Source: Parcubacteria group bacterium (GTDB lineage: Bacteria; Patescibacteriota; Minisyncoccia; Moranbacterales; UBA2206). From it: a stretch of DNA of 64,000 nt. A model generated the notes under the pieces. That model was not told the origin of the DNA, did no database searches, and saw only the letters and a program-made list of their open reading frames with translations. The DNA lies in NCBI GenBank assembly GCA_041674205.1, contig JBAYWF010000002.1, positions 46,940-110,939 on the forward strand, given 5' to 3'. Below are positions 1,808 through 23,776 of this stretch, in pieces (the first letter of the stretch is position 1; the number at the start of each line of letters is the position of its first letter). The position numbers were made by a program, and so were the translations under genes.

Positions 1808-3277
1808 TTATTTTATCTTGTTTTTTAACATTTCCATGACGATTCCCGGATTAGCCTTGCCTTTCGAGGCGGCCATCACCTGTCCCATCAGGAATTGGAG
1901 CGCGTTCTGTTTGCCAGCTTTGAAATCGTCCACCGATTTCTGGTTTTTGGCCAACACCCCATCGATTATGTTTTCAAGTTCGGAAGCGTCATCCATCTGC
2001 GCCAGATTTTTTTCCTCGATGATCTGCGACGGATCGCCGCCAGTCGCGTACATCTCTTCCAAAACGACCTGTCCGGCGCTGGAATTTATCTTGCCATCCG
2101 CCAAAAAGCCGACGAGTTCCGCATAATTTTCCGCCGTTATCTTCACGTCTTTGATAGTTTGGGAATTTTTCATCAGATGTTTCTGCAATTCACTGACCAT
2201 ATAATTCGCGGCTAATTTGACCAGCTTATTTTCTTCAGAACCGATTTCCCCGCTCTGCTTTTTCTCTTTCAATTCGGAAACCACATGCTCGAAATATTCC
2301 GCCAAATCCTTGTCGCCCGTAATCACGTTCACATTTTCCAAAGATAAATTATATTCATCTACAAATCTCCTGGATTTAGCGTCTGGCAATTCAGGCAGAT
2401 GCCGGCGCAAATCCGCTACGTATTCTTCCGTAAACTTCATCGGCGGAATGTCCGGTTCGGGGAAATAGCGGTAATCATGGGCGGACTCTTTTTTTCTCTG
2501 CGCTACCGTGACGCCGCGCGCCTCGTCCCAGCCCCGGGTTTCCTGTGATACCTTCTCGCCTTTTTCCAGAATTTCCGTCTGGCGCAAGATTTCATAATCG
2601 ACCGCGCGCTCAACCACCCGGAAAGAATTCAGGTTTTTAATTTCCGATTTGGTCCCGCTCAGCTTCTCCTCATCCTCCTTATGTAAAGAAATGTTGACCT
2701 CGCAACGCATATGGCCTTTCTCCATATCCGCTTCCGAAATTTCCAGATAACGGAAAATCTGCTGCAATTTCTGGCAGAACAGGCGTGCTTCCTTGCCATT
2801 CTCAATGTCCGGTTCCGTCACCAGTTCCATCAGAGGCACCCCAGCCCGATTGAAATCCACCAAAGAATATTCAACGCCTTTCGGATGCACCAGCTTTCCC
2901 GTGTCCTCTTCCATATGGATCCGGGTTATCCCGACGGACTTCCCGTCGATTTCAACGCGGCCCTGCTCGCACAGGGGCTGGTCATATTGCGAAATCTGGT
3001 AGCCCTTGGGGATGTCCGGATAGAAATAGTTCTTACGGTCGAATTTGGAATTTTCCGCGATCTGACAATTCAGTGCCAAGCCAGCCATTTGCACGAATCT
3101 GATCGCTTGTTCGTTGGCTACCGGCAAAGTCCCGGGTTGCGCCGTGCAAACCGGACAAATATTAACGTTCGGTTCCGTTTCCATACCTAAACCGTTCTTG
3201 CAGCCGCAAAACATCTTCGATTTCGTTTTCAGTTCGACATGGATTTCCATACCGATGACGGGAATATATTTTGTCAT
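1808..3277 (-). CDS. gatB: Asp/Glu-tRNA(Asn/Gln) amidotransferase subunit B
   Basis: N-term MTKYIPVIGMEIHVELKTKSKMFCGC, typical GatB. Confidence 0.9.
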   Translation of the reverse strand: MTKYIPVIGMEIHVELKTKSKMFCGCKNGLGMETEPNVNICPVCTAQPGTLPVANEQAIRFVQMAGLALNCQIAENSKFDRKNYFYPDIPKGYQISQYDQPLCEQGRVEIDGKSVGITRIHMEEDTGKLVHPKGVEYSLVDFNRAGVPLMELVTEPDIENGKEARLFCQKLQQIFRYLEISEADMEKGHMRCEVNISLHKEDEEKLSGTKSEIKNLNSFRVVERAVDYEILRQTEILEKGEKVSQETRGWDEARGVTVAQRKKESAHDYRYFPEPDIPPMKFTEEYVADLRRHLPELPDAKSRRFVDEYNLSLENVNVITGDKDLAEYFEHVVSELKEKKQSGEIGSEENKLVKLAANYMVSELQKHLMKNSQTIKDVKITAENYAELVGFLADGKINSSAGQVVLEEMYATGGDPSQIIEEKNLAQMDDASELENIIDGVLAKNQKSVDDFKAGKQNALQFLMGQVMAASKGKANPGIVMEMLKNKIK

Positions 3278-3340
3278 AAAATCTAGATTACTGGATTATA
3301 ATAAGCCTGTGTTTAAAAAAATAGTGTGTGATTTTTATTT

Positions 3341-3410
3341 TTATACTCAAATTTTCAATTCACAATTTTAAATTTTCAAACAATTTTTAATTTAAAATTT
3401 CAAAAAATCA
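3341..3410. repeat. AT-rich AATTTTAAATT / AATTTTCAA repeat tract (gatB-dut intergenic)
   Basis: caattttaaattttcaaacaatttttaatttaaaatttcaaaaaa. Confidence 0.5.
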
Positions 3411-3423
3411 GATGCTCAAATAT

Positions 3424-3846
3424 TTAAACTCCGGTGCTTCCGAAACCGCCGTTTCCTCTTTCCGTTTCGTCCAATCCGCCCACTTCGATAACTTCCGGAT
3501 TTTCCACTTTCTGGATAAGCATCTGTGCGATCTTATCCCCCTTGCCTATCTTATATGTTTCTTGCGATAAATTAACGAGGCCTATCTTAACTTCGCCGCG
3601 ATATCCGCTATCGATGACGCCACCCAATACTTTTATCCCGCTCTTGATGGCGATGCCGCTCTTGTCCCAAATCAAGCCGACATATCCGTCCGGAATTTGC
3701 ATCGCGATTCCGGTCCGGCAAGCCGACCTTTCCATTGGCCGCAACTCCAAATCTTCCAGAGAGAAAAAGTCCATACCCGCATCGCCCGCAATGGCATATT
3801 GGGGAATTTTCGCGTCGGTTTCCAATTTTTTTATCCGTATCTTCAT
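3424..3846 (-). CDS. dut: dUTP diphosphatase
   Basis: 140 aa, dUTPase motifs (AGMDF, GVIDSGYRGE). Confidence 0.9.
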   Translation of the reverse strand: MKIRIKKLETDAKIPQYAIAGDAGMDFFSLEDLELRPMERSACRTGIAMQIPDGYVGLIWDKSGIAIKSGIKVLGGVIDSGYRGEVKIGLVNLSQETYKIGKGDKIAQMLIQKVENPEVIEVGGLDETERGNGGFGSTGV

Positions 3847-4535
3847 TTTATAATTATTTCCAACTTATTCCAAATTATACTTCCGATTTCATCTATCGGC
3901 AGAAGTCCATCATTTTTAACACAATTTACCCGCACCCAATTATTATTTTTCTTAATCATTTTTATCGCGCTTTCTTTGGAATCTTGCAAATGTTGCAGAT
4001 TATTTTCCGCCACGTCTTTCCGGCCTCTCAAATATCTTTTTTTATAACTGCCTTTTTCGCCTGCCAGAAGTTTTTGCGTGATTTCCACCGGCACATCCAG
4101 GTAGATGATCGCATCCGGTTTGGGAATGGCAAAAATCTCAAACTCCATTTTTTCCAGCCATTTCAGAAATTCTTTTCTGTCTTTTTCATTTTTTATTTTC
4201 CCTCCCTGATGGATTTGATTGGAACTGACATAGCGGTCAGCGATGACGATATTCCCGTCTGCCAGCCATTTCCGAATGCTTTTACTGGATTCAAAGCGAT
4301 CAGCCGCATATAGCACCGAAGCGATGCGCGGATTGACTGCCAAAAAATCCCCATACTCTCCAGCCAAACATTCACCGATCAATTTTCCGAAAAAATTATC
4401 ATAATATCTTGGAAAATCAATCACTTTGACCTTGAATTTATTCTTTTTGAGTCTGGACGCCAATAGTTCGGTCTGGGTCGCTTTCCCGCTGCCATCCGTG
4501 CCATCAATAACGATAAATTTCCCTTTTTTCCCCAT
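3843..4535 (-). CDS. tmk: thymidylate (dTMP) kinase
   Basis: GKFIVIDGTDGSGKATQ P-loop, DRY motif; 4-nt overlap with dut. Confidence 0.85.
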   Translation of the reverse strand: MGKKGKFIVIDGTDGSGKATQTELLASRLKKNKFKVKVIDFPRYYDNFFGKLIGECLAGEYGDFLAVNPRIASVLYAADRFESSKSIRKWLADGNIVIADRYVSSNQIHQGGKIKNEKDRKEFLKWLEKMEFEIFAIPKPDAIIYLDVPVEITQKLLAGEKGSYKKRYLRGRKDVAENNLQHLQDSKESAIKMIKKNNNWVRVNCVKNDGLLPIDEIGSIIWNKLEIIIK

Positions 4536-4566
4536 ATCTTAGTTTTTTAAAAGCAGTTTGCCGCCG

Positions 4567-5040
4567 TTATCTCGTCAGCTCCAAAAATTTAAACTTGTAT
4601 TGGCCATTGTCAACCGCCTCCTCCTTTATGATATTTTTAAATTCAGAGTAATCCGGGAAAAAAGTATCGGCATCTTCCGGGGCATCTTCCACGACCGTCA
4701 AATAGAGCTTATCTACCATTGGCAAAGAAAGCTTGTAAATTATGCCGCCTCCGATGACAAAAACCTCCTCTTCGCTATTTTTATATTCTTGCAAAACTTC
4801 CTCCAAAGAATTCCTGACTTCCACGCGATCATCCCGGAAATCTTTGTCGAGTGTCACGACGATATTTTTCCTATTCGGCAACGGTTTGCCGATGGACGCG
4901 AAAGTCCGCTCGCCCATAATCACAGTGTGGCCGGAAGTCGTTCTTCTGAAATGCGCCATATCCTCCGGGATATCCCAAAGCAACCGGTTATTGCGCCCGA
5001 TGGCGTTATTTTTAGCGACTGCCACGATAAGTGAAATCAT
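4567..5040 (-). CDS. folA: dihydrofolate reductase
   Basis: MISLIVAVAKNNAIGRNNRLLWDIPEDMAHFRRTT, classic DHFR. Confidence 0.9.
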   Translation of the reverse strand: MISLIVAVAKNNAIGRNNRLLWDIPEDMAHFRRTTSGHTVIMGERTFASIGKPLPNRKNIVVTLDKDFRDDRVEVRNSLEEVLQEYKNSEEEVFVIGGGIIYKLSLPMVDKLYLTVVEDAPEDADTFFPDYSEFKNIIKEEAVDNGQYKFKFLELTR

Positions 5041-5132
5041 ATAGCTTATACCCTATGAAGCTGATTATCCCTTTTAACCATATTATCACATAAAAAGACC
5101 GCCGACAAGCGATATTTCCAGACCTACGTTTA

Positions 5133-5160
5133 TTGCAAAATGCCATAATTCAGGTATAAT
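5133..5160 (+). promoter_or_regulatory. sigma70-like promoter (-35 TTGCAA, 16 nt spacer, -10 TATAAT) upstream of nucleotidyltransferase gene
   Basis: TTGCAA at 5133-5138, TATAAT at 5155-5160, 43 nt before ATG at 5203. Confidence 0.5.
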
Positions 5161-5202
5161 TTAGGTATTGACGGATAAATTAACATAATTAAAGCAAGAT
5201 CT

Positions 5203-5787
5203 ATGGATATCGAAATATCAAGTCTCTTAGGTAGCGGAAAGCTTGTACCCACAAAAGATATAGGCAAAATTTCAACTTTTCTCAAAAAGAATAATTACAA
5301 AGTCGTATTGACGCAAGGGGTGTGGGATCTTATCCACGAAGGGCACGCCCAATATCTTCAAAAAGCCAAAGAATTCGGCGATGTGTTGATCGTAGCTGTC
5401 GATACCGATGAAGTCGTGAAACATCGCAAGGGTCCCAACCGCCCGATAGTTCCGGAAAAGGAACGGGTCAAAATGATTTCCCATTTGAAACATGTCGATT
5501 TGATCGTTATGAAAGAATCCAAAACGGATCATGGAAAGCTCATCAGGGATATAATGCCCGATATCTTCGTTATTTCAGAGTCGACACAATCCAATATAAA
5601 AGGCAAAAGTTTTCTCCAGGAAATCATAGAAGAACATACTCCGTACTGCAAAAAAATTGTCAACCTGGAGCCGCAATCCACGACCTCCACTACCGCGCGG
5701 ATCAGGCTGTTGACCATCCAAGGAGCTGAGGATCTTGCGAAAGAATTACAAAAATCGATAGAAAATTTCTTGTACAACAGAAAGTAG
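5203..5787 (+). CDS. cytidylyltransferase-family nucleotidyltransferase (TagD / RfaE domain II-like)
   Basis: GVWDLIHEGHAQYL (HxGH motif), LIVAVDTDE, ISHLKHVDLIV. Confidence 0.7.
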   Translation: MDIEISSLLGSGKLVPTKDIGKISTFLKKNNYKVVLTQGVWDLIHEGHAQYLQKAKEFGDVLIVAVDTDEVVKHRKGPNRPIVPEKERVKMISHLKHVDLIVMKESKTDHGKLIRDIMPDIFVISESTQSNIKGKSFLQEIIEEHTPYCKKIVNLEPQSTTSTTARIRLLTIQGAEDLAKELQKSIENFLYNRK

Positions 5788-5890
5788 AGGATATTGGAAT
5801 TTTATTATTACCGCTCAGGAATGGACCTGCCGGCTGGCGTTATCCTCCCGCCGGACTAGCCAAACAACGCTAAATTTTTACGCCACGAGA

Positions 5891-6736
5891 ATGTCCGGAA
5901 AAAAAATCTTAATCGCTCTAGCCCCCGTCATCCATATCAAATACCTGGAATTATTCAAAAAATATCCGGAGCATCTTTATATTTTAGATGACACGATCCT
6001 GAAAAAATGGGACAAATTTGAAAATTTGAAAAGGGACCTGCGATCCATCGACCAAAAGACCATCTGTGATTTCATCCGGAAATCAGGCCTTTTGCAAAAG
6101 GTCGACCTGTTGACATTGGAAAATTTGACGGCTTTGGAGGAAGAAAAAGCTTCCATCGTCATGCCGGACGAAGACGTGTCCCGCTGGTTCGCGGAAAAAT
6201 TTCTTCCCGACAGGAAAGTTGAATTTGAAAATGTCTTTTTGCGGTGGAACAAGCCGGTGTCAACCCAGGAATTGGAAGTTTCCGCTGACAGGATAATCAC
6301 ATTTGAAAAAGCCCACCAAGAACTTATGGACAAAGCCGACGCCCTGAAAGAAAAAAGCGCTAATTGGTGGAGACAGATCGGCGCCATAGTCACGGACGCG
6401 AAAGGCTCGGTGATACTTTCGGCATTCAATCGCCATGTCCCCACCCAGGAAAATATGGCTGTCTATGGAGACCTCCGGATGTGTTTTGACGCCGGTGAAA
6501 ACCATCACCTCTCCAATTCCATCCACGCGGAAGCCTCCCTGATTGGGAAAGCCGCCCGGGACGGGATCAGCCTGGACGGTACCGTTCTATACGTCACCAC
6601 CTTCCCCTGCCCGACTTGCGCCAAACTGGTGGCGGAAGCTGGCATTAAAAAAGTTTATTACCAAAACGGCTATTCACTTTCCGACGCTGAAGATATCCTC
6701 AAAAATGCCGGGGTGGAGATTATTTTAGTCAAATAA
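5891..6736 (+). CDS. dCMP/cytidine deaminase-family zinc enzyme with ~140 aa N-terminal extension of unknown function
   Basis: C-terminal HAEASLI...TFPCPTCAKL zinc-binding CDA signature; N-terminal half has no match I recognise. Confidence 0.7.
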   Translation: MSGKKILIALAPVIHIKYLELFKKYPEHLYILDDTILKKWDKFENLKRDLRSIDQKTICDFIRKSGLLQKVDLLTLENLTALEEEKASIVMPDEDVSRWFAEKFLPDRKVEFENVFLRWNKPVSTQELEVSADRIITFEKAHQELMDKADALKEKSANWWRQIGAIVTDAKGSVILSAFNRHVPTQENMAVYGDLRMCFDAGENHHLSNSIHAEASLIGKAARDGISLDGTVLYVTTFPCPTCAKLVAEAGIKKVYYQNGYSLSDAEDILKNAGVEIILVK

Positions 6737-7924: not shown

Positions 7925-8902
7925 CTATACCGGAGTTGGAATCTTAAACCAAGGCTTTGGTTCGTAGTCTTCAAGCACGAAATCCTCCTTGCGGAAATCC
8001 TGGAGCCTTGTCACTTTCCTATCCAGTCTAAGAGTCACGGTCGGGAAAGGCTTCGGTTCAATGGCTAAAATCTTATCCACTGATTCAGCTTGGACGTCAT
8101 AATAATGGGGATTGGATAGAAAATGAGTATATTTGGTAAACTTGTAACCCAGCAGATGCGCCACCATCAAACCAAGAGCTGACCATTCGATCAGGTTGAA
8201 TTGCAAGCCCACCGGGACATCGGCCGATCGCTGGGTGTGTGTCATTTCCAGTTCTTTCTGCTCATCAAAAAGCACGAAATGGATGAAATTGCCATGGCAG
8301 GGAGCGACGACGACTTTGCGCTTGAAACCCTGCTCTTCATCTCCCATCGATAGAGGCGGATTCCAGGTAGTCAGGACATGGGTCCTCAAAAATGGCGCTT
8401 TTTCCATCTGCCGCTGGACGGCGCTGACTTGATCGAATTCCCCTTTTGCGGATTGGAAACGTCCCAAGGATGCCCCATAGGATCCATCGCCCAAATCGCC
8501 TTCAGGTAACCCAAATATCGCACACTTTTCTTTTGTAACCCAATCCTTCCAAAAAACCTCCGGACAGCCATATTCCTTCAGGCCGCTCAGCGTACTTTGC
8601 CCATTTAAAAACGCCACCAATTCGCCTATTGATCCATAAAATGACTTGCTCAAATCACGCTCCGTCAAAACGGGAAAACCGTTGTTCATTTCAAATTGCA
8701 ACATAGCACCTGTTATTTCTTTTGAATTCTGATGCCCGGAATTAGCATTCTCACTAAGCCTGGCATGGATAGGCACTTTGTCTTTTCCTGTTGTTTTAAT
8801 TTTTTTAAGCAATTCTTGATATTGAAAATCAGGAACCCGCTCGCCAAATGGAAGATAATCGATGCCTCCTTCTATTTTATTTTTAACCTCTTTATTTGTC
8901 AT
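7925..8902 (-). CDS. thyA: thymidylate synthase ThyA family, divergent, N-extended
   Basis: TTWNP, catalytic VVAPCHGNF, RSAD, GLQFN (uracil-specifying Asn retained); aligns with E. coli ThyA over the core. Confidence 0.75.
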   Translation of the reverse strand: MTNKEVKNKIEGGIDYLPFGERVPDFQYQELLKKIKTTGKDKVPIHARLSENANSGHQNSKEITGAMLQFEMNNGFPVLTERDLSKSFYGSIGELVAFLNGQSTLSGLKEYGCPEVFWKDWVTKEKCAIFGLPEGDLGDGSYGASLGRFQSAKGEFDQVSAVQRQMEKAPFLRTHVLTTWNPPLSMGDEEQGFKRKVVVAPCHGNFIHFVLFDEQKELEMTHTQRSADVPVGLQFNLIEWSALGLMVAHLLGYKFTKYTHFLSNPHYYDVQAESVDKILAIEPKPFPTVTLRLDRKVTRLQDFRKEDFVLEDYEPKPWFKIPTPV

Positions 8903-8965
8903 ATTTTTATGCCCCTATCTTACTGTTTATGGTTATTCCATCATACTATTTTTAGCTCCATAGGT

Positions 8966-8988
8966 CAAAAAGTCCCGCCTCAGCGGGA
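8966..8988 (-). terminator. rho-independent terminator after P-loop kinase gene
   Basis: minus strand GTCCCGCtgagGCGGGACttttt. Confidence 0.55.
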
Positions 8989-8996
8989 CTCCCTAT

Positions 8997-9572
8997 TTAT
9001 CGCCTGATTTTTTCCATAATTTTATCCGTTTCTTCCAGCAGATATTCCAAAGTTTGCTCGTTTCTGACGGTGAAATCCGCTTTAGCGCCGATTTCCGGAA
9101 TGATCGCTTCCGTTTCGAATTTTTCCAATTCCTGGAATTTGGCGAAACTGCTGTTGTCATCCGATTTTTCCATCCGGTTCGTCGACCGCTCCCAGCGCAA
9201 TTTCTGGTCCGCGGTAACATAGATGATATAGCTCCGGGGAAATCCCTTTACGAAATCATAATTTTCCCAAAATCTTATTCCATTGAAGATAACTACCTTA
9301 TCGCTAACTGACATCCTTTTTATCAAAGCCTTAGCGAAAATATCTTGTCCGAATCTTTCACGGACAGCGTGCGAAAGCCACTGCAAATCCTCCCTGGATA
9401 TCGCGTCAACGAAGTTCCTCAAAGCGTCGAACAAAGGATCGGAAAACCGGATTTCCTTAGCGCCATATCGGTCTTTCAGATGTTTTGATACCGTGTCCTT
9501 GCCCGATCCTGGCTCTCCTGCCAAACCGATGATTATTTGTCCTGACTTATCCATCTTATAGGGTTTATCCAA
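8997..9572 (-). CDS. P-loop nucleoside/nucleotide kinase-like protein
   Basis: IIIGLAGEPGSGKDTVSKHL Walker A, ~190 aa. Confidence 0.6.
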   Translation of the reverse strand: MDKPYKMDKSGQIIIGLAGEPGSGKDTVSKHLKDRYGAKEIRFSDPLFDALRNFVDAISREDLQWLSHAVRERFGQDIFAKALIKRMSVSDKVVIFNGIRFWENYDFVKGFPRSYIIYVTADQKLRWERSTNRMEKSDDNSSFAKFQELEKFETEAIIPEIGAKADFTVRNEQTLEYLLEETDKIMEKIRR

Positions 9573-9655
9573 TTAGCCTCGCCAAATAATCCTATCAAAA
9601 ATCACCGGTTCGGTCAACATAAAAAATGCTTACGTCCCACAAAGGACTAAAGTCA

Positions 9656-11068
9656 TCATAAAAAATCGATCGGCATAGCATCCCCGCTGAATTCTTTTTT
9701 GTCCAACACCTTTTTATTTTCAACGTCCAAAAGCAAAAAAACCGACTTCCATTCCCGTTCTCCACCCGCTTGGCGATGCGAATTGCCAAAGATGGCCAGA
9801 TAGCGTCCGTCCAACCAGAAGATATCAGACCAATCATCATAACCTTTAGGCAAGGCACCCACTTCCATCCTTTCCTTGGTCGCTACATCGATAGCTAGAA
9901 GTTCAGCGGAATCTTTTACCGTTTCGTTTATGAAAAATACCAGCCTGCCGCCCGGTGAAAAAAACGGAAGTGATTTCATGTCTTCTTTGTCCAATGCGTA
10001 AAATCCGCCTCCATCGATATTCGAAACAGCCAGAACGCTGCTAGGCGCTTCCGTAAATTCATTTTTGAAAGTGAAAACGGCTTTTTTGCCATCCGCAGAA
10101 ATTGCCGCTTCCTGAAAACCGCCTTTCTGCCTTCCGATTTTCCCTCCCAAATCAAATGGAACATCTGATTTTTCCGCCGCTACGATAAAAATTCCTGATC
10201 GGCCTCCATCTCCAGGCTCCGGATCGATAATCAGATTAGCATTGGGCGCCCAGCGCGCTTCCATCCCAGCCAGCGCGCTGCTTTCTGATCCTCCAATCGG
10301 AGCGGGATCACCCGCTAATTTGGTATCGATAACATATAGCCGGTGGGATCCGGCGGAAACTTCCACGAAGCTCAAAAACCTGCTGTCAAAAGACCATTGG
10401 GGTTTCACCAAATCAAAAACATAAGTATTTTTTTTCAGGACCTGTTCCGAAGCGAATCCTGGATCAGCGACCAGCGCTTCTTTTTTTCCAACCAGCAATC
10501 TATTCTCCCTGCTTGCCAAATCATACGAATATAATCCGTCGATTGCCACATATGCCAGCTTTTTTTTATCAGGCGATAAAACGACACTTGCGACTGGCAC
10601 ATCTGTCCCGTCAGACAATCCATCCAAACTCCGGTCAAATTCCAAAACTACTTCCTGATAATCCTTTTTGATATCTTCCCGACTGACAATCACATGATTG
10701 CCTTGTCCGGAAACCACCAGAAGCGCCCCATGGTAGGCGTTACCTTCTTCGGCAAAGCCCTCCAAATCCCAAATATTGCCATCCGCAAACTGAGCCGCCG
10801 CTTGATTCTCTTGACCAGCCATCACTTTTATGCCGCCGACTTTCCCAAAGTCATTCCCTTGCCATTGATACACGCCTGCGGTCGCTATGGCAACCGAGAT
10901 GGCTAAAGCTGCCACGACGGCTAATTCCCTGCGAACCTTGCGCCGATTATAACGGAAACTCAGCCCTTGCCTGATCTCGATTCTCTTATGTTTGATCATA
11001 TCCCATTCGGCGACCACTTTCTCCTCGATTGCCTGGCCAAACGAATGCGCATCAAATTTTTTTTCCAT
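9656..11068 (-). CDS. membrane-anchored TolB-like beta-propeller (PD40/WD40-like) protein
   Basis: short cytoplasmic N-term, one TM (LAVVAALAISVAIATAGVYQW), repeated propeller-like segments. Confidence 0.5.
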   Translation of the reverse strand: MEKKFDAHSFGQAIEEKVVAEWDMIKHKRIEIRQGLSFRYNRRKVRRELAVVAALAISVAIATAGVYQWQGNDFGKVGGIKVMAGQENQAAAQFADGNIWDLEGFAEEGNAYHGALLVVSGQGNHVIVSREDIKKDYQEVVLEFDRSLDGLSDGTDVPVASVVLSPDKKKLAYVAIDGLYSYDLASRENRLLVGKKEALVADPGFASEQVLKKNTYVFDLVKPQWSFDSRFLSFVEVSAGSHRLYVIDTKLAGDPAPIGGSESSALAGMEARWAPNANLIIDPEPGDGGRSGIFIVAAEKSDVPFDLGGKIGRQKGGFQEAAISADGKKAVFTFKNEFTEAPSSVLAVSNIDGGGFYALDKEDMKSLPFFSPGGRLVFFINETVKDSAELLAIDVATKERMEVGALPKGYDDWSDIFWLDGRYLAIFGNSHRQAGGEREWKSVFLLLDVENKKVLDKKEFSGDAMPIDFL

Positions 11069-14077: not shown

Positions 14078-16597
14078 CTATTTTGATTTTAAAATAGCTT
14101 TTTTGAACGCGTCACCTTTCTCTTCGAAATTCTTCCAAACGCTATAACTCGGTGAAGCGGTCGAAAGCAAACATATTCCGCCAGGCCTGCTATTGGCAAA
14201 AGCGAATTCTACCGCTTCATCCATTTCTCCGGTATGTAAAATATGGTATTTCTTCTTGGACTTTTTACGCAAAGCCGCCGCGATTTTTTTCCCGCTATCA
14301 GGAAAAAAGGCGATATTTCTGACTTTCGATTTATCGATAGCGACGGCTAGCTTCAAAAAGTCATAACCCCGATCCAATCCACCCAAAAATATCGTATCCA
14401 CATCTTCCAATGAATCGATGGCCGCCATAGTCGACTCAGGCGTAGTCGAAATCGCATCGTCATAAAATCTGATTCCCTGAAATTCACCGACCAGCTCCAA
14501 GCGATGCGGCAAAGATCGGAATCCCTCAATGCCTTGTTTTATGGTATTTTTAGAAATTCCCAGCACATCAGCCACGGCGATTGCCGCTTTGATATTTTCT
14601 ACATTATGCTTGCCTAGCAAGGGGACCTTTATATCTCCTAGGCCTATCCCATTGAATGGAACTTTTTTTACATTCAAGCCGGCGAGTCTTTTTTCCAACT
14701 CACGATCTTTTTGATTAAATACGCAAACATCGGTCTGATTCTGAAATTTCACAATATTGCTCTTGGCCGCATAATATTTTTCCACACCACCATGGTAATT
14801 CATATGTTCAGGAAAAAGATTAAGCATCACCGCGATATTCGGCGAATACCGGATATCATCCAATTGATAGCTGGAGAGTTCGATGACGAAAATTTCTTCC
14901 GGATCGATCGGTTGCAATATGGCTTCCAGCATCGGACTGCCGATATTTCCCAATAGCCTGGCTTTTTTCCCCGCGGCCTGCAAAATAGAAAAAATGAGTG
15001 AAGCCGTAGTGCTCTTGCCTTTGCTGCCCGTGACTCCAATGGTCAGATTCGCCACTTGGGAAAAAAACAAGTTAGTCGCGGTCGTGTATGGCCGAGTGAT
15101 CAATTCCTTAGGCAAGCCCGGAGTTTTTATAACCAAATCAAATCCATCCTGTTTTTCCAAATAATCCGATCCGTCCTTTTCGTCCGCGATGGCAATTTTT
15201 ATTTTTGGAAAATATTTTCTTATATATTTCCCAGTCACCATCCCTTCCTTGCCATAACCTAAAATCAGTGCATTTTTAATACCCGATAACTTGAATTTAT
15301 CAGGCAATGCTGGCGCCGGGTTTGTCTCAAAGACCTTTTTAATAAGCTTGTCTGGATTTTTTATCCTATTGACGACATTTTGCATAATAAAGCTGTCTGT
15401 GAATTTGTCCTTAGCCGAAAACAAAGCCGCACGCGACTCATCAAAAGTACCGACACAATCGAAGGGTTTCATTTTTCCATAACCCAACACGTCCAAAAAT
15501 AAAGGCAATAGTTTTTCATCCGCATACATATCCTTATGGAAAATTTCCATCATTTCCCGCTTGCTCAAAAAAGCTGATAAGAGAATCCACATAAAAACGC
15601 ATTTAGGACATTCGCCGCACCACAATCCGTTCGGCCGATCCTTATGTATGCGGAAGCTGCGGTTGCAACTCGTAAATAAGGGGAAATATTTTTTATACCT
15701 TACGAACATCTCCACGATGCGGATCTCATAGAACGGGCGCAAAAGGGAGAAATATGTGACATCCGGACAGATATTTTTTCTAGTATATTCCTGGAAAAGT
15801 TTTTCAAATTCAGCCGACTTGCTCCATTGATGGTTGATTTCTTCACCTTTATAGGTGATGTTGCCGAAATTACTGCTATATTCGTTAGCTACGACCACCC
15901 GGGCATAATCATAAACGATCGCCGCGAAATAACCCAGAAAAGCGAAGACGGCCGAAATCGGGATATGTCCGTTATAGGCACCGGGAAAATCATCAAATAT
16001 CTTATCGTCCACACGCCTATTAATCACCAATGATCCGATTTTCAATTCCTCGGCTATCCGAACGGAAATCGGGGATTTTTTTTGCGTTTCAATCAAAAGA
16101 GCCGTGATATCCTCCCGCTGCTCCTTCAAAAGTTCCGCCGCCACGATCGAATCCTTGCCGCCGCCGATACCTACCAGTGAACGGTTTTTCCGGACCAGTT
16201 TGCGCGCGATCGGTTTCTTTTTCGCGTCATACGGGAATCTGACCAAATTATGCGGATCAATTCCGTTGCGATAAAAAAATTCACCCAAACCTTTCCGATA
16301 AACCGTATTCCAAAATTCCGCCTGATCCTTGGAAAGGACGGAGGAAATTTTTATTTTTTTCGGACAATATAATTTATAATAACTTATTCCCAATATGATA
16401 TGGATGCTGGATAATAAGTTTTTCAAAATTTCCGGATGGATGCCGGACACTGAAAATTTATCCGAAAAAGATATCGTCTCTGAAAAACGCAACGGCTCCC
16501 GATCGGCAAAAATTATCTCATAGTCAAAAACAGCCCTGGTTTTATCCGGCTCCAACTTATACGAAATAAAATTAAAGACTTTCGGATTAGGTTTCAT
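14078..16597 (-). CDS. fusion protein: N-terminal PP-loop ATP-pyrophosphatase domain (QueC-like, C-terminal CxxCxxC) + complete MurD-like Mur ligase
   Basis: SGGxDS-type PP-loop LVGIGGGKDS, CGECPKC; C-terminal half has MurD Rossmann N-domain and Mur ligase P-loop GVTGSKGKSTT. Confidence 0.7.
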   Translation of the reverse strand: MKPNPKVFNFISYKLEPDKTRAVFDYEIIFADREPLRFSETISFSDKFSVSGIHPEILKNLLSSIHIILGISYYKLYCPKKIKISSVLSKDQAEFWNTVYRKGLGEFFYRNGIDPHNLVRFPYDAKKKPIARKLVRKNRSLVGIGGGKDSIVAAELLKEQREDITALLIETQKKSPISVRIAEELKIGSLVINRRVDDKIFDDFPGAYNGHIPISAVFAFLGYFAAIVYDYARVVVANEYSSNFGNITYKGEEINHQWSKSAEFEKLFQEYTRKNICPDVTYFSLLRPFYEIRIVEMFVRYKKYFPLFTSCNRSFRIHKDRPNGLWCGECPKCVFMWILLSAFLSKREMMEIFHKDMYADEKLLPLFLDVLGYGKMKPFDCVGTFDESRAALFSAKDKFTDSFIMQNVVNRIKNPDKLIKKVFETNPAPALPDKFKLSGIKNALILGYGKEGMVTGKYIRKYFPKIKIAIADEKDGSDYLEKQDGFDLVIKTPGLPKELITRPYTTATNLFFSQVANLTIGVTGSKGKSTTASLIFSILQAAGKKARLLGNIGSPMLEAILQPIDPEEIFVIELSSYQLDDIRYSPNIAVMLNLFPEHMNYHGGVEKYYAAKSNIVKFQNQTDVCVFNQKDRELEKRLAGLNVKKVPFNGIGLGDIKVPLLGKHNVENIKAAIAVADVLGISKNTIKQGIEGFRSLPHRLELVGEFQGIRFYDDAISTTPESTMAAIDSLEDVDTIFLGGLDRGYDFLKLAVAIDKSKVRNIAFFPDSGKKIAAALRKKSKKKYHILHTGEMDEAVEFAFANSRPGGICLLSTASPSYSVWKNFEEKGDAFKKAILKSK

Positions 16598-16608
16598 TCT
16601 GATTTATC

Positions 16609-18180
16609 TCAGCGTCTAATTACCTCACCGAACCGGCCACCCGCATAAACTCCGTCTTGCAGCGCGATCTGTCCATTGACTAAAACCAGATCGATGCCTT
16701 TGTTATACCGATAGGGATTTTCCTGGGTGGCGAAATCGCAGATTTCATCGCGATTGATGATTACGATATCCGCGAAATATTTTTCTTTTAACATCCCTCT
16801 TTTTTTGATGCCGAATTTCCGCGCCGGCAATGAAGTCATTTTCGCGATCGCCTCTTCCCATCGCAAAAGCCTTTTACCCAAGACATATTTAGCCAAGACC
16901 CGCGGAAAAGTCCCAAAGCTTCGCGGATGCACCACCTCGCCCGTCTGTCCATGATTGTCACGATAGCCGGAACCGTTAGTCGAGATGACCGCGGCCGGAT
17001 GGACGATCGCTTTTTCGATGTTTTCTTCGCTCAAAACATCCATCGAAATGATGACTTGCCCGTCTGAAGCGATCAAAATATCCACTATGGCATCTTCTAT
17101 CGATTTTTCTTGGGAAACGGCTATTTCCGCGATTTTCCGCCTGGCCAGCGTCTTATTCAAGGGGGAACTGGCTATTTCTATCTTGGAATAATCGATTGCT
17201 GACGCTTTCATTTCCGCCACAACCTTAGCACGGTTTGCCGGATCTTTCAAGCGGTTGAGCATCATTTTCTTACCCCCATCAGTCGCCCAAGACGGCAATA
17301 GCGTATACAGGACCGAACCGGTATTCGTGTATGGATAAACATCAAAAGTCACGTCCAATCCGGTTTCGCGCGCCCGGGAAATCATATTCAAGGCATCCTC
17401 CATCATAGGCCAGTTTTCTTCTCCCATAACTTTGAGATGGGATATGTGCAATTTGACTTTCGTCAGACGGGCAATTTCGATCGATTCTTCAACCGAATCC
17501 AAAAATCCGGCATTTTCATCGCGCATATGAGTCACATACACCCCGCCGCGCTCTTCGATTTTCTCCGCCAAACTGATGATTTCATCCTTAGTCGTGCTTC
17601 TCGCATGGGTATAGACCAACCCGGACGACATTCCCAAGGCGCCTTCCTTCATCGCGTCTGATAATTTTCCCGCCAAAAAATCCACTTCTCTGAAATTGAG
17701 ATTCCGCATCTCATCCCCTAGGATGCTTCGGCGCAAAGTCGCCTGTCCGACCAGCGTGGCAAAATTCACGGACAATTTTTTCCTCCCGATGACATCCAGA
17801 AATTCCCGCATACCCAGCCAATCCAAACTAGTATTATTGACGCTTAGCCATTTCTGCACGGACACGATCGCTTTCGCTCCCAAAAGCGGCGCCAAAGATG
17901 ATCCGCAATTGCCGCCCACGATAGTCGTGATACCCTGATGCACCAAGCTTTCCAGATCCGGATTGGAAAATATCTGCCAATAAGTATCGCTATGGTTATT
18001 CACATCCACAAAACCGGGACACACCAATCGGTCAGCCGCGTCGATTTCGATTTCGCCTTTTTCATTCTGCAAATCCCCGATTTTGGCTATCTTGTCATCC
18101 TTTATGCCGATATCCGCGCGATACATCGGCTCTCCTCCACCATCGATCAGCGTCCCGTTTTTTATTATGATGTCGAACAT
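16609..18180 (-). CDS. D-aminoacylase / N-acyl-D-amino-acid deacylase-family amidohydrolase
   Basis: MFDIIIKNGTLIDGGG...VCPGFVDVNNHSD metal-dependent amidohydrolase N-terminus typical of D-aminoacylases. Confidence 0.7.
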   Translation of the reverse strand: MFDIIIKNGTLIDGGGEPMYRADIGIKDDKIAKIGDLQNEKGEIEIDAADRLVCPGFVDVNNHSDTYWQIFSNPDLESLVHQGITTIVGGNCGSSLAPLLGAKAIVSVQKWLSVNNTSLDWLGMREFLDVIGRKKLSVNFATLVGQATLRRSILGDEMRNLNFREVDFLAGKLSDAMKEGALGMSSGLVYTHARSTTKDEIISLAEKIEERGGVYVTHMRDENAGFLDSVEESIEIARLTKVKLHISHLKVMGEENWPMMEDALNMISRARETGLDVTFDVYPYTNTGSVLYTLLPSWATDGGKKMMLNRLKDPANRAKVVAEMKASAIDYSKIEIASSPLNKTLARRKIAEIAVSQEKSIEDAIVDILIASDGQVIISMDVLSEENIEKAIVHPAAVISTNGSGYRDNHGQTGEVVHPRSFGTFPRVLAKYVLGKRLLRWEEAIAKMTSLPARKFGIKKRGMLKEKYFADIVIINRDEICDFATQENPYRYNKGIDLVLVNGQIALQDGVYAGGRFGEVIRR

Positions 18181-19668: not shown

Positions 19669-20043
19669 TTACGATTTCCACAATCCGTGGACATTGCAAT
19701 AAGCTCTCACTTCGATATGTTCAGCCTCCAGACAAAACTCCGCTTCCGGTTCCATACCCGGCTCCAAATGTTTCCGATAAACTCGATGCTCGGTTATGAC
19801 TTCGATCCATTCGATATAGTGTTCGCTCTCCATCGGATGCAGCACGCTGCCCACCCGCACGATCACGCCTTCACTCACCTTCTCCACGACCGGCCGGTGT
19901 TTTTCATATCTCTCTTCTTCGCTCTGTTCGGCTTGCAAAACCATCGGCTGGCCGCAACACACCAATTCACCCACTCCGTTATGCAAAACTTCGGTGATAT
20001 TGCCACAGATATCGCATTTATAGACTTGTCTTAATTCAGTCAT
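19669..20043 (-). CDS. dfx: desulfoferrodoxin (2Fe superoxide reductase)
   Basis: N-terminal desulforedoxin CDICGN...CCG; C-terminal SOR His/Cys ligands. Confidence 0.85.
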   Translation of the reverse strand: MTELRQVYKCDICGNITEVLHNGVGELVCCGQPMVLQAEQSEEERYEKHRPVVEKVSEGVIVRVGSVLHPMESEHYIEWIEVITEHRVYRKHLEPGMEPEAEFCLEAEHIEVRAYCNVHGLWKS

Positions 20044-20061: not shown

Positions 20062-21321
20062 TTAATGTACCGCGCAGGAAATGCACGGATCATAGGCCCG
20101 GATGAAGCCGCGTAACTTCTTTTGCTTGTCTTGATCCTTGAGATCGATTATCTCCTTGATGTAGTCCGCCACGTCATCTTCCAAATTAGCCAGGAACTGG
20201 GCGGTCGGAGTGATGATATTCACGTTTTTCACATAGCCTTTGCTGTCCACATCGACATGATAATAGAGCGTCCCGCGCGGAGCTTCGACCGCCGCCACGC
20301 CGACTCCCTCTTTGATTTCATATGGCCGGGTGACGACCCTCTCCAAGTCGGAGTTCAAAAGCTCTTTGATCAGCTTAGTCGATTCTTCGACGCAATGGAT
20401 GAGTTCAACCATCTGGCACAAGATATTATGGAATGGATTATAGTCCGGAAAAGTGAAATTCAAGCTTTCCAAATATTTGCCCGCTTGCGGATTGAGCTTA
20501 CTGCGGTTGATATTGATCCGGGCGATCGCTCCGACCATATAGCTTATCCCGTTATGCTCGACTTTTTTGATCACCTCGTTCTGCTTCTGCAATTCCTGGA
20601 AATCCTGTTCGAATTTTTCCACTGGGATATGCAGGCCGTACGAGGAAACTATGTCTCCGTCATAAACCGCATATCTCCCTTTCCCGCTCAAACATACATA
20701 CTCGGTTTCCCGTTGGAAATCGGGAATTTTTATTTTTTTGAAAAAATCACCCAGCGCGACAGCGTCTTGCAATGCCCGCTCGCTGTCCGCGACGATCTTC
20801 CGCAAAGCTTCCGCCTCCGGGGCTTTTTTGAAACCGCCCACCTCGTTGGTCAGCGGATGGATAACCCGTCCGCCGATGACCCGTACGATATCCATACCGA
20901 ACTCCCGCAGACGCACCGCGATTTTCGTTTCTTCGGGATAAGCGCTGACCAGCTGGATATCATTATCCATATCCAAAAAATCCGCCAATGACAGGAAAAA
21001 AAGATGGAGGGCATGCGAATGGATGATTTGCGCCAATTCCATCACCGTGCGCAGTTTTTTGGTTTCCGGCGTGACCTGGATGCCCATCGCGTTCTCCAAA
21101 GCCTTGATTGAAGTCAAGTTGTGCACCACCGGACAAATTCCACAAATGCGTTGGGCGATTATGGGCATATCCGTATAGTAGCGTCCGATCAGGACGCCCT
21201 CAATCAGACGGATGCCTTCCTGCACCTCCAGTTTGGCGCTTTTGACATCCCCATCCAACACACTGGCCATAAAACCGGCATGTCCTTCCATTTTAGCGAT
21301 ATGGTTTATTTTTATATCCAT
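20062..21321 (-). CDS. [NiFe]-hydrogenase large subunit (compact cytoplasmic group 3-like)
   Basis: N-terminal RICGICPVVH and C-terminal DPCISCAVH (ORF stops directly after His, no cleavable extension). Confidence 0.9.
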   Translation of the reverse strand: MDIKINHIAKMEGHAGFMASVLDGDVKSAKLEVQEGIRLIEGVLIGRYYTDMPIIAQRICGICPVVHNLTSIKALENAMGIQVTPETKKLRTVMELAQIIHSHALHLFFLSLADFLDMDNDIQLVSAYPEETKIAVRLREFGMDIVRVIGGRVIHPLTNEVGGFKKAPEAEALRKIVADSERALQDAVALGDFFKKIKIPDFQRETEYVCLSGKGRYAVYDGDIVSSYGLHIPVEKFEQDFQELQKQNEVIKKVEHNGISYMVGAIARININRSKLNPQAGKYLESLNFTFPDYNPFHNILCQMVELIHCVEESTKLIKELLNSDLERVVTRPYEIKEGVGVAAVEAPRGTLYYHVDVDSKGYVKNVNIITPTAQFLANLEDDVADYIKEIIDLKDQDKQKKLRGFIRAYDPCISCAVH

Positions 21322-21325
21322 AATT

Positions 21326-22534
21326 TTATATTTTTATGTTTTTTTCCCTCGCCTCTATATCATCCCGCAAGCCGAAAATCTCAGCGATGTTTTCAAATTC
21401 ATGGTCGGTCACCATATTTTTCAAAGCCGCGCGCATCGCTTTCACATTTCCAGTCGGACGGAGTCCGCGGCATCCCTGGCAAGTCATCCGGGAGGTCGGA
21501 CAGACCGCGCCGCACCCGCCCTGGATCATCGGTCCGAAGCACGGCTTCTTGTCGAGCAACAGACAACGGTTGCCAGCCGCTTTGCATTCGACGCAAACCG
21601 GCTGGTCGGGAATGACCGGAATCCGGCCGGCTAGCAATTCCGGGATATAGCGCAGAAACTCATCGCCGGAAATCGGACAGCCTGGGAAAACAAAATCGAC
21701 TTTTACGAAATTATCGATTTCCCTGATTTCCGGATTACTGATGCCTTGGATATATTTGTAGACATGTTTGATCGTATTGGCGCCTTCCTGGTAATTTTTA
21801 ATTTCCGGTATTCCGCCCATAGCCGCGCAATTGCCCAATGCTACCAATAACTTGCTTCTTTTACGCAAAGCTTTCAAAGTTTTTACATTTTCTTCCGTCA
21901 CCGGATTGCCTTCCACCAAGACCAAATCCAAATCGCCTCCGCCATCCTCTTCATCCTCGATCAGGCGGAAATCCACCATTTCTATTTTTCCCACAAAATC
22001 CAAAAATTTCTCGCCCAAATCCAGCAAAGCGAATTGGCACCCCTCGCAAGAAGTCAAGCTGGCGATAGCCACTTTCGGTTTTTTCAATTTGGCCTCCGGT
22101 TTGCTTGGCGCCGCTTTTGCCACTTTTGCGATTTTAACGGTTTTCTTAACCGCGCTTTTGTTTTTTTCATTCACGACAGCCACAGACGCATCAACTTTCT
22201 TTTTGGCTACCCGCTTGACTGTCGGCTTTCTCTTATCAGCCTTTGCCTTGCTCTTATTCGCAGGTTTGTTTGGCAATATCTTTTTTGCATCCTTTGTTTT
22301 TTTATCAGCTACTGTTTTTTTCTTGACCGTCAACTTAGCTGGCATTTTTTTCTTCACAACCCTCGCGCCTTTCTTGGCCACAGCCGATTTATTTTTCGCT
22401 ATCCCTACGGGCAGCTTTTTCACTTTCGATTTCTTGGCGTTTTTTTTAGCCGCAACTTTGCCTCTTAACCGAGAGGTCACACTGGATAACCTGCCTAAAA
22501 ATTTAGCGATTTTTGATTTTTTATTTACTGCCAT
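21326..22534 (-). CDS. [NiFe]-hydrogenase small subunit with ~150 aa Lys/Ala-rich N-terminal extension
   Basis: SCEGCQF proximal-cluster motif and C-terminal Cys clusters; N-terminal KKxAK repeats. Confidence 0.85.
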   Translation of the reverse strand: MAVNKKSKIAKFLGRLSSVTSRLRGKVAAKKNAKKSKVKKLPVGIAKNKSAVAKKGARVVKKKMPAKLTVKKKTVADKKTKDAKKILPNKPANKSKAKADKRKPTVKRVAKKKVDASVAVVNEKNKSAVKKTVKIAKVAKAAPSKPEAKLKKPKVAIASLTSCEGCQFALLDLGEKFLDFVGKIEMVDFRLIEDEEDGGGDLDLVLVEGNPVTEENVKTLKALRKRSKLLVALGNCAAMGGIPEIKNYQEGANTIKHVYKYIQGISNPEIREIDNFVKVDFVFPGCPISGDEFLRYIPELLAGRIPVIPDQPVCVECKAAGNRCLLLDKKPCFGPMIQGGCGAVCPTSRMTCQGCRGLRPTGNVKAMRAALKNMVTDHEFENIAEIFGLRDDIEAREKNIKI

Positions 22535-22612: not shown

Positions 22613-23776
22613 ATGCGGATATTCGAATATGAAAATAAGGACACTCGACAAATCTTGGCTCTCGGTCCCGAATCGAACGGCAATTTTTCGTTTTTCTATC
22701 AGAACAAGCTTTATTTTTCCGAAGATTTCGGCGATCTATTGATTGATAAAAATTTCCATAATTACAAAACGGGCCTTTCTAAGTTCCTCAGCGCAAACAA
22801 CTTCCGTCCGGACATCATCCTCACCGACTCGCATCCGCTCTACAAAACTACCACCCTAGGCCGAAACCTGGCTAAAAAATATCCCGCCAGACTTATCCAG
22901 ATCCAGCACCACCTCGCCCACATTTTTTCCGCGATCGGCGATAAAACATTACTGACTAGAAACTATCAGCTAGAAAAGGCTTTAGGCATAACTTTGGACG
23001 GTACCGGCTATGGATCGGATGATAAAATTTGGGGAGGGGAAATTTTTAGAATTTCAAAATCCAAATTTCAAATTTTAAATCAAATCCCACAACTAAAATT
23101 ACAAATCGAAAGGATCGGACACCTGGAAAACCAAGTGATGATCGGGGGTGATTTGGCTATCAAGGAGCCTGCACGTATGTTGATCGGCATCTTATCAAAA
23201 TTCCTACCCAAGGAAAGCATCTATCCGCATATAAGAAAATATTATTCCGCCCAGGAATTTGAAGTTTTATACAACCAATCGCAACAGAAATTCAACTGCA
23301 TCGAAACATCCAGCACCGGAAGGATTTTGGACGCGGTTTCCGTGCTGCTCGGTTTTTGCGGCAATCAAAGAAATTACAAACATGAGCCGATCGAGTTATT
23401 GGAAAAAAATTCAGCAAAACCCTATTTGGATTTAAAACCCGAAATTAGCAAAGATTCCGACGGAAACCATATCCTCAGCACCACTTATTTATTTAATTAC
23501 ATACTTAAATACTTACATAAAAACAAAGATATATCTGACGGGGATAGGAACCGCTTGGCTGCCACCGCCCAACTCTACATCGCCCAAGGACTATACCGAA
23601 TAATTTCGGATGCAGATTTCGAAATCAGGGACTTCTATCTAGCCGGCGGCATCGCCAACAATAAAATAATTTCCGGATATCTGGACTCCAAGGGCGCCTA
23701 CGCCAGCCGGACGATTCCCCGCGGCGACGCCGGGCTTTCGTTCGGGCAGATCGTTTTCTATTTATCCGGCCACTAA
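22613..23776 (+). CDS. HypF-like carbamoyltransferase, C-terminal Kae1/YgjD-like domain only
   Basis: QHHLAHIF (HypF HHxAH), LDGTGYGSD, LAGGIANN; no acylphosphatase, Zn-finger or YrdC domains. Confidence 0.6.
   Translation: MRIFEYENKDTRQILALGPESNGNFSFFYQNKLYFSEDFGDLLIDKNFHNYKTGLSKFLSANNFRPDIILTDSHPLYKTTTLGRNLAKKYPARLIQIQHHLAHIFSAIGDKTLLTRNYQLEKALGITLDGTGYGSDDKIWGGEIFRISKSKFQILNQIPQLKLQIERIGHLENQVMIGGDLAIKEPARMLIGILSKFLPKESIYPHIRKYYSAQEFEVLYNQSQQKFNCIETSSTGRILDAVSVLLGFCGNQRNYKHEPIELLEKNSAKPYLDLKPEISKDSDGNHILSTTYLFNYILKYLHKNKDISDGDRNRLAATAQLYIAQGLYRIISDADFEIRDFYLAGGIANNKIISGYLDSKGAYASRTIPRGDAGLSFGQIVFYLSGH

Follow-up and report, generated by a model that had tools for sequence, protein, structure and literature searches.

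A putative MurL-MurD2 fusion predicted to install D-glutamate in the peptidoglycan precursors of Patescibacteria

Since 2017, a MurD2/MurL pathway has been on record in Xanthomonas oryzae (XOO_1320/XOO_1319; Feng et al. 2017), and two reviews cover it (PMC8788868, PMC5808125). L-glutamate (L-Glu) is added first and is then flipped to D-glutamate (D-Glu) using ATP, with MurL carrying out an ATP-dependent, AMP-forming and unidirectional L to D epimerisation of the terminal Glu (PMC8788868). According to both reviews, the pathway is confined to a fairly small number of genera and MurL has no known conserved domains; neither of them speaks of fusions (PMC8788868, PMC5808125). The pathway has also been proposed as a narrow-spectrum drug target (PMC8788868). 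Here, we describe a gene in which counterparts of the two enzymes are joined. It lies in a 64-kb stretch of DNA from a Parcubacteria group bacterium (GCA_041674205.1, contig JBAYWF010000002.1, positions 46,940–110,939), and this whole stretch is referred to below as the window. The open reading frame (ORF) encodes 839 amino acids (aa), with an N-terminal half assigned to MurL and a C-terminal half resembling MurD2 (Table 1).

The fusion shares with the X. oryzae system both protein families, the gene order, the PP-loop and four-cysteine (Cys4) motif of MurL, the Glu, Arg, Pro and aromatic residues of MurD2, and the loss of the lysine equivalent to Lys319 of Escherichia coli MurD. It differs in being one polypeptide where X. 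oryzae has two proteins, and in its host, which belongs to the Patescibacteria (Parcubacteria/Moranbacteria-like) whereas the known hosts are Xanthomonadales, a few Alphaproteobacteria and rare actinomycetes. The Xanthomonas proteins are 30–37% identical to those of the window, and the aromatic residue is Tyr here and Phe there. On sequence evidence and by analogy with the characterised enzymes, the gene very probably encodes a bifunctional MurL-MurD2 fusion that installs D-Glu at position 2 of the stem peptide without free D-Glu.

Relatives were sought by scanning one genome per GTDB species, which returned 116 stretches encoding a relative, and 80 of these loci were kept. Their titles cover Moran-, Uhr-, Buchanan-, Staskawicz-, Nealson-, Nomura- and Roizmanbacteria, Paceibacterota, Peregrini- and Peribacteria, and generic Patescibacteria. 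The labels 'uncultured Gammaproteobacteria', 'Bdellovibrionales' and 'Saccharibacteria' also occur among the titles, but these are unverified and we make no claim for the fusion outside Patescibacteria. The annotated murL-murD pair on an X. sacchari replicon (L085) served as the Xanthomonas reference, and a position was called near-invariant when it was conserved in at least 95% of the sequences compared, namely those of the window, of Xanthomonas and of the 80 Patescibacteria loci.

The original prediction, made from the window sequence, had pointed to an 839-aa ORF with the motifs GIGGGKDS, CGECPKC and GVTGSKGKSTT, and all three were found, at residues 143–150, 327–333 and 521–531, respectively. 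It had also suggested a logic like that of MurD2/MurL while leaving the family unconfirmed. A domain hidden Markov model (HMM) check now assigns the N-terminal half to MurL: residues 6–397 match the NCBIfam MurL model NF041275 (E 8e-100, 334 bits, model positions 8–397 of 447), and the precomputed Pfam hits for an identical protein are PF26299 (MurL_N) and PF26298 (MurL_epimerase_C). These Pfam names come from the precomputed hits; our own Pfam scan, against a copy without MurL families, returned for the fusion the middle and C-terminal domains of the Mur ligase, with a sub-threshold tRNA_Me_trans HUP match (residues 141–174) the only result in the MurL half. In a BLASTP comparison the MurL half is 37.5% identical to the annotated X. 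sacchari MurL (E 3e-76), and 55 near-invariant positions are identical in the Xanthomonas protein. They include G146-G-K-D-S150, H211, N255-H-Q-W-S-K260, C311, C327, C330, C333, K377-P-F-x-C381-V-G383 and E387. The PP-loop residues G146-G147-K148-D149-S150 and the four cysteines are strictly invariant across the 80 loci and Xanthomonas MurL, and Y73, K75, Y100 and E106 of the N-terminal subdomain are likewise invariant and common to Xanthomonas MurL.

An AlphaFold2 model of the full-length fusion had a predicted local distance difference test (pLDDT) score of 89 and a predicted template modelling (pTM) score of 0.82. The N-terminal subdomain was modelled at pLDDT >90 as strands at residues 5–16, 21–30 and 36–44 and helices at residues 55–110. 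An unrelated fold lacking a PP-loop had been considered as a way in which the original prediction might fail, but the structural matches of the MurL half are all PP-loop ATP pyrophosphatases (ArtA, LarE, TtuA, argininosuccinate synthetase and NAD synthetases), and Foldseek returned the same families again. The modelled fold is of the adenine-nucleotide alpha-hydrolase type, closest to QueC. Its PP-loop reads GGGKDS where the canonical motif is SGGxDS, with the first Ser replaced by an invariant Gly. QueC and the QueC-like Cap9 are PP-loop ATP pyrophosphatases with a Cys4 zinc site, and the C-x8-CGHCAAC motif of E. coli QueC resembles the C311-x15-CGECPKC motif of the window protein, which lies at a similar distance from the PP-loop and is presumed to bind a metal (Zn). 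When an alignment of 56 MurL sequences was compared with E. coli QueC using hhalign, only 17 residues around the PP-loop (SGGQDS in QueC) were aligned, with a probability of 2% that is not significant, and a sequence search of the PDB copy used found no chain matching the MurL half and no solved MurL structure. Thus, the predicted likeness to QueC is one of fold and motifs, whereas the sequence comparison gives no homology that can be detected. MurL further differs from QueC in an additional N-terminal subdomain of approximately 135 aa, a C-terminal helical region of approximately 90 aa and, by analogy with the characterised MurL, a nucleotide-sugar peptide substrate whose adenylate would be resolved by epimerisation and hydrolysis rather than by attack of ammonia.

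The ligase half scored 267 bits against the NCBIfam murD model TIGR01087, above its 212-bit cut-off, and its best PDB match was the MurD structure 3lk7 (E 1e-50). E. coli MurD residues 7–432 were covered by a tblastn match to window positions 15277–14099, and a compact Rossmann-like N-domain was modelled at residues 442–506 of the fusion, in agreement with the predicted full MurD-like ligase with a Rossmann N-domain. As in E. coli MurD (PDB 1UAG/5A5F), the ligase has three domains and retains all residues that contact ATP, Mg and UDP-MurNAc-L-Ala; its catalytic residues, too, are without exception those of the E. coli enzyme (K115, N138, E157, H183, K198, N268, N271, R302, D317 and T321 in E. 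coli numbering). It differs from E. coli MurD at the positions that bear on stereospecificity, and in being joined to an epimerase; unlike the E. coli route with MurD and MurI, that of the fusion would need no free D-Glu.

X. oryzae MurD2 has Glu197, Arg358, Pro433 and Phe435 where E. coli MurD has Asp182, Lys348, Ala414 and Leu416, the E197D/R358K double mutant of MurD2 becomes D-Glu-specific, and the K319T substitution makes L-Glu acceptable to E. coli MurD (PMC8788868). At these columns the window ligase has E597, R743, P816 and Y818, i.e. the changes D182→E, K348→R, A414→P and L416→Y, together with K319→I at I716. The review does not name the X. oryzae equivalent of Lys319. In X. sacchari MurD2 the same four columns read Glu, Arg, Pro and Phe and the fifth reads Ile (Ile339), with the published spacing kept. 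Among the 80 loci, position 182 (E. coli numbering) is Glu in 76 and Asp in four, position 348 is Arg in all 78 that align (two gapped), position 414 is Pro in all 77 that align (three gapped), and position 416 is Tyr in 75 of 77. Position 319 is never Lys in the 78 aligning loci (Ile in 75, Asn in two, Leu in one). The ligase half is therefore assigned, from its signature residues, to the MurD2 type with an L-Glu signature. More divergent fused representatives also never have Lys319, and nearly all keep the Arg, Pro and aromatic residues; across MurL-fused ligases the Lys319 equivalent is replaced by Ile, Leu, Phe or Asn. The absence of Lys319 may thus be a more general marker, and a better predictor of L-Glu specificity, than Glu197.

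In the mechanism that we propose, the MurD2-type ligase would ligate L-Glu onto UDP-MurNAc-L-Ala via an acyl-phosphate, converting ATP to ADP and Pi. The PP-loop domain of MurL would then adenylate the alpha-carboxylate of the new terminal L-Glu, converting ATP to AMP and PPi and acidifying the alpha-proton. ATP sites of both kinds are intact, namely the P-loop associated with ADP formation and the PP-loop associated with AMP formation. The PP-loop fold fits the substrate adenylation proposed in the reviews, because characterised MurL forms AMP, and we infer the chemistry from the characterised Xanthomonas and actinomycete (Micromonospora, Salinispora) enzymes. The fusion would hold the two activities at a 1:1 ratio, and the L-Glu intermediate, which is useless to MurE, would probably be handed directly to the epimerase. 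This channelling between the halves is speculative, as is the choice of C381, H211, H256 and K260, all invariant, as candidates for the epimerisation base.

Table 1. Coordinates of the fused gene, its parts and its neighbours in the window
Feature	Position	Strand	Basis or remark
murL-murD2 fused gene	14078..16597	-	single uninterrupted ORF, 839 aa + stop
MurL N-terminal subdomain, residues ~1–135	16193..16597	-	three-stranded sheet and helices; Pfam MurL_N
PP-loop ATP-pyrophosphatase core of MurL, QueC-like, residues ~136–345	15563..16192	-	
PP-loop motif GIGGGKDS, residues 143–150	16148..16171	-	motif position in translation
Cys4 motif C311-x15-C327-G-E-C330-P-K-C333, presumed Zn site	15599..15667	-	four Cys invariant
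MurL C-terminal helical region and junction to ligase, residues 346–436	15290..15562	-	invariant columns; helices at residues 346–423
Putative MurD2-type Mur ligase, three domains, residues 437–839	14078..15289	-	TIGR01087, PDB MurD match
Ligase ATP-binding P-loop GVTGSKGKSTT, residues 521–531	15005..15037	-	aligns with E. coli GSNGK115ST
E597 (E. coli D182, X. oryzae MurD2 E197), stereospecificity determinant	14807..14809	-	alignment
I716 (E. coli K319), lysine lost as in Xanthomonas MurD2, motif D-A/S-I-S-T-T-P	14450..14452	-	alignment
R743 (E. coli K348, X. oryzae MurD2 R358), stereospecificity determinant	14369..14371	-	alignment
P816-S817-Y818 (E. coli A414-S415-L416, X. oryzae MurD2 P433-S-F435)	14144..14152	-	alignment
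D-aminoacylase-family amidohydrolase, 523 aa	16609..18180	-	family profile and PDB matches
DUF7670 small membrane protein, 125 aa	13674–14051	-	26 nucleotides (nt) downstream of fusion
Desulfoferrodoxin	19669–20043		
NiFe-hydrogenase large subunit	20062–21321		
NiFe-hydrogenase small subunit (Oxidored_q6)	21326–22534	-	
HypF C-terminal domains, 387-aa ORF	22613–23776	+	HypF_C, HypF_C_2

The fused form is common among the relatives. A single fused ORF is present in 52–53 of the 80 species loci, and adjacent, often overlapping murL and murD2 genes in 27–28, among them all loci with Roizmanbacteria titles; L032 was mis-scored in this tally, its tblastn match having extended beyond the terminal stop. 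The split genes have the same order as in Xanthomonas, where murL is upstream and, in X. sacchari, overlaps its partner. In a neighbour-joining tree of the concatenated domains, rooted with Xanthomonas, the split pairs are basal and all fused forms make up one clade. This fits a single fusion event, as far as a simple neighbour-joining tree without support values can indicate. At E≤1e-10, 1671 database proteins match the fusion ORF, and the best 120 matches are all full-length, 811–875 aa long and 54–100% identical, which places the ORF well outside what chance would give. One of them, P0001, is the identical 839-aa protein; it is labelled as a MurD ligase of 'Parcubacteria group bacterium', and the Pfam domains recorded for it are MurL_N, MurL_epimerase_C, Mur_ligase_M and Mur_ligase_C.

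When 1.84 billion cluster representatives (50% identity) were searched exhaustively with HMMER, 2,564 MurL-family clusters were recovered at E≤1e-3, of which 1,182 were at E≤1e-30. Among the best 150 MurL-family clusters, 22 were at least 780 aa long and 121 were stand-alone proteins of 380–520 aa. One protein, P0256 (878 aa, L088 positions 8001–10637 on a 1.19-Mb contig), has the reverse order, starting with the MurD-type ligase and ending with MurL. At E. coli positions 182/319/348/414/416 the residues of this ligase are D/F/R/P/F, and the P0256 gene lies outside any division and cell-wall (dcw) cluster. P0256 is a second, independent joining of the two enzymes, and it reinforces the functional coupling of MurL and MurD2.

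Other members of the MurL family were also seen. P0266 (699 aa; its cluster also holds P0271, 700 aa) has MurL homology (NF041275, E 1.5e-83) from residue 243, preceded by an N-terminal extension of approximately 240 aa, and a simple motif search found neither a GGGKDS loop nor KPFxCVG in it. In the Pseudonocardia alni plasmid pPaSha1, a MurL-like 'hypothetical protein' (L086 positions 4968–6368) stands alone with no Mur ligase adjoining, and MurL-like proteins are found on two other Pseudonocardia plasmids (hits H3 and H4). These proteins are 27–30% identical to the MurL half of the window, and the plasmids are mobilizable. The lone gene in L086 suggests that the MurL fold is used there on another substrate. 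The reference pair in L085 is from X. sacchari R1 'plasmid unnamed' (NZ_CP010410, 508 kb), a non-mobilizable plasmid record that also carries a lysC/lysA-like gene. This record probably represents a chromid, or else chromosomal sequence assigned wrongly, and murL-murD2 is presumably essential there.

Public annotation names nearly all fusion copies plain 'MurD, D-glutamate ligase', and the Prokaryotic Genome Annotation Pipeline (PGAP) likewise gives the MurD2 of L085 the plain name 'murD ... D-glutamate ligase'. A few copies are named 'MurL epimerase' by JGI. As Pfam and NCBIfam MurL families also exist, the databases partly capture the finding.

When the ORFs flanking the 80 loci were clustered, the recurrent neighbours were ftsW, immediately downstream in 23 loci (9 fused, 14 split), murG, in 21, and mraY, immediately upstream in 12. 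In L080 the order is murF ... femX-like, mraY, murL, murD2, ftsW, murG, an unassigned ORF, ftsA and ftsZ; L027 has mraY, the fusion and ftsW, and L015 has the fusion, ftsW and murG. There was no other MurD-like gene in those dcw clusters. Thus, in related loci the pair or fusion often fills the murD slot of the division and cell-wall cluster, between mraY and ftsW, which is the slot of murD in E. coli. Between murF and mraY, L080 also has a sugar aminotransferase (PseC/LegC-like) and a FemX-like peptidyltransferase (positions 3202–6481), an arrangement that hints at a branched or modified stem peptide.

The gene immediately upstream of the fusion in the window encodes a D-aminoacylase-family amidohydrolase. 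The original prediction had the family and the adjacency right; the position is corrected here to the 5' side of the fusion, and the link proved to be lineage-restricted. A phmmer search of the PDB matched the Alcaligenes D-aminoacylase 1m7j (E 2.5e-73) and the N-acyl-D-Glu deacylase 3gip (Bb3285 of Bordetella; E 2.5e-66), with homology over the full length. Only 11 nt separate the amidohydrolase stop from the fusion start, with no terminator-like site between them, and the two genes are probably co-transcribed as an operon with the amidohydrolase gene upstream. Ten of the 80 loci have an amidohydrolase beside the fusion, separated from it by a median of 16 nt; every one of these loci is of the fused type, and the majority are Moranbacteria-like. 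It is absent beside the fusion or pair in the other 70, including all split pairs.

Compared with the Alcaligenes enzyme, the window protein retains the metal-site residues Cys96, His220 and His250, but Asn stands in place of both His67, which opens the HxH motif, and Asp366, the catalytic Asp of strand 8. The same Asn/Asn pair ('VDVNNHSD' and 'ISTNGSG') is found in 8 of the 10 orthologues (L002, L003, L004, L009, L014, L034, L040 and L056; 48–60% identity), with L040 also lacking Cys96 and His220, whereas the L049 orthologue keeps both His and Asp and that of L047 keeps Asp. D366A variants of the Alcaligenes enzyme are reportedly strongly impaired, and the PDB holds such variants (1rjq, 1rjr, 1rk5). 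From these replacements, standard deacylase activity is doubtful, and the protein may be a pseudo-enzyme or have a changed chemistry. With adjacency in only 10 of 80 loci and an altered active site, we rejected the amidohydrolase as a core partner; it is a lineage-specific companion. The DUF7670 protein encoded on the other side of the fusion was dropped as part of the system, as it does not recur beside the fusion in any of the 80 loci.

Several observations weigh against a bifunctional MurL-MurD2 enzyme. The 334-bit score of the MurL half is below the 700-bit equivalog cut-off of NF041275, which was made with Xanthomonadales in view; the stand-alone MurL of L080, also from Patescibacteria, likewise falls short of it (371 bits). 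By overall similarity, the ligase half scores 147 bits with X. sacchari MurD2 and 135 bits with E. coli MurD, which is about the same, and the NCBIfam murD model accepts both. Overall similarity was therefore dropped as a discriminator, and the MurD2 assignment rests on the signature residues and the linkage to MurL. At position 182, four loci have Asp, and so do roughly half of the fused representatives that are more divergent. The window copy lies outside any cell-wall gene cluster: in the window's own lineage the gene has moved, and it is now flanked by genes for the amidohydrolase and GAPDH, a NiFe hydrogenase cluster and secE-nusG-rplK-rplA. A tblastn search of the 64-kb window found no MurI, no second MurD and no other dcw gene, which does not establish genome-wide absence. 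A tblastn search of the 80 flanking loci also found no MurI, a result that says nothing about whole genomes.

We also weighed alternatives to a bifunctional enzyme. A frameshift or assembly error that merged separate murL and murD2 genes had been raised as a way in which the single ORF might mislead, and separate adjacent genes do exist in related loci. However, independent assemblies (NCBI, ENA, JGI and Logan) carry the same 839-aa protein, the frame is continuous in at least 120 protein clusters (811–875 aa) and in the 52–53 fused species loci, the junction between MurL and the ligase (residues 424–441) is ordered in the full-length model at pLDDT >90, and the fused forms share one clade. 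We rejected an artefact because of the independent assemblies and the full-length frame conserved among relatives, and regard it as extremely improbable. It is very unlikely that the ligase is instead a canonical D-Glu MurD and that the MurL-like domain performs some other adenylation-dependent modification of the stem peptide, e.g. amidation of the Glu alpha-carboxylate (the MurT/GatD role), an alternative that the original prediction had offered. PP-loop enzymes such as QueC, NAD synthetase, asparagine synthetase and TtuA often adenylate a carboxylate or carbonyl for transfer to an amine or sulfur, and both the sub-cut-off MurL score and the family members with Asp182, like E. coli MurD, would be in keeping with such a role. 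It is opposed by the 55 near-invariant positions common to Xanthomonas MurL, by the MurD2-like pattern of the ligase, in which Lys319 is missing and R348, P414 and an aromatic side chain at position 416 are present, by a pairing and gene order that are those of the characterised system, and by the flanks of the 80 loci, in which there was no recurrent glutaminase or amidotransferase neighbour. The MurL identity and the MurD2 stereospecificity residues instead favour the other option that had been predicted, Glu ligation coupled to ATP-dependent epimerisation.

A further possibility, which we consider unlikely, is that the amidohydrolase, murL-murD2 and DUF7670 together form a module for salvage or editing of D-Glu, with the amidohydrolase supplying or removing D-Glu peptides. 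The 11-nt gap without a terminator-like site, the recurrence of the adjacency in 10 loci with short gaps, and the presence of an N-acyl-D-glutamate deacylase among the nearest solved relatives would all suit such a module. Yet the amidohydrolase is missing from 70 of the 80 loci and from every split pair, DUF7670 adjoins the fusion in none, and the catalytic Asp and first HxH His are both Asn in the window and most orthologues. An L-Glu-specific MurD2 would, moreover, have no use for released D-Glu. A bifunctional MurL-MurD2 enzyme acting on the precursor is the reading that we prefer.

Two features of the hydrogenase region of the window are recorded separately. The small-subunit gene, which is upstream of those for the large subunit and desulfoferrodoxin, encodes an N-terminal extension of approximately 170 aa that is extremely Lys/Ala-rich and histone H1-like. 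The 387-aa HypF-like ORF, divergent from the hydrogenase genes, contains only the C-terminal domains and is without the N-terminal acylphosphatase and zinc-finger parts.

Our literature search, which left most papers in subscription journals outside its reach, found nothing joining MurL with Patescibacteria or the candidate phyla radiation (CPR), nor glutamate racemase in CPR. The pathway itself is known; what is new is the fused architecture and a new, very large group of hosts. We tentatively suggest, as a possibility, that MurL/MurD2 is the normal and sole D-Glu route in large parts of Patescibacteria, fused in the Parcubacteria type and split in the Microgenomates type, with no glutamate racemase or free D-Glu. 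The fusion would then have arisen once from an ancestral dcw pair and would channel the L-Glu intermediate, and Xanthomonadales and other hosts may have acquired the pair by transfer.

MurL/MurD2 relatives occur in 116 or more GTDB species within Patescibacteria, which would make the route far commoner than the literature states. The fusion offers a natural single-protein reagent for the study of MurL, and the predicted PP-loop and Cys4 assignment names residues that bear on the adenylation mechanism. Making D-Glu only on the precursor would suit organisms of minimal metabolism that take L-amino acids from a host, at the cost of a second ATP.

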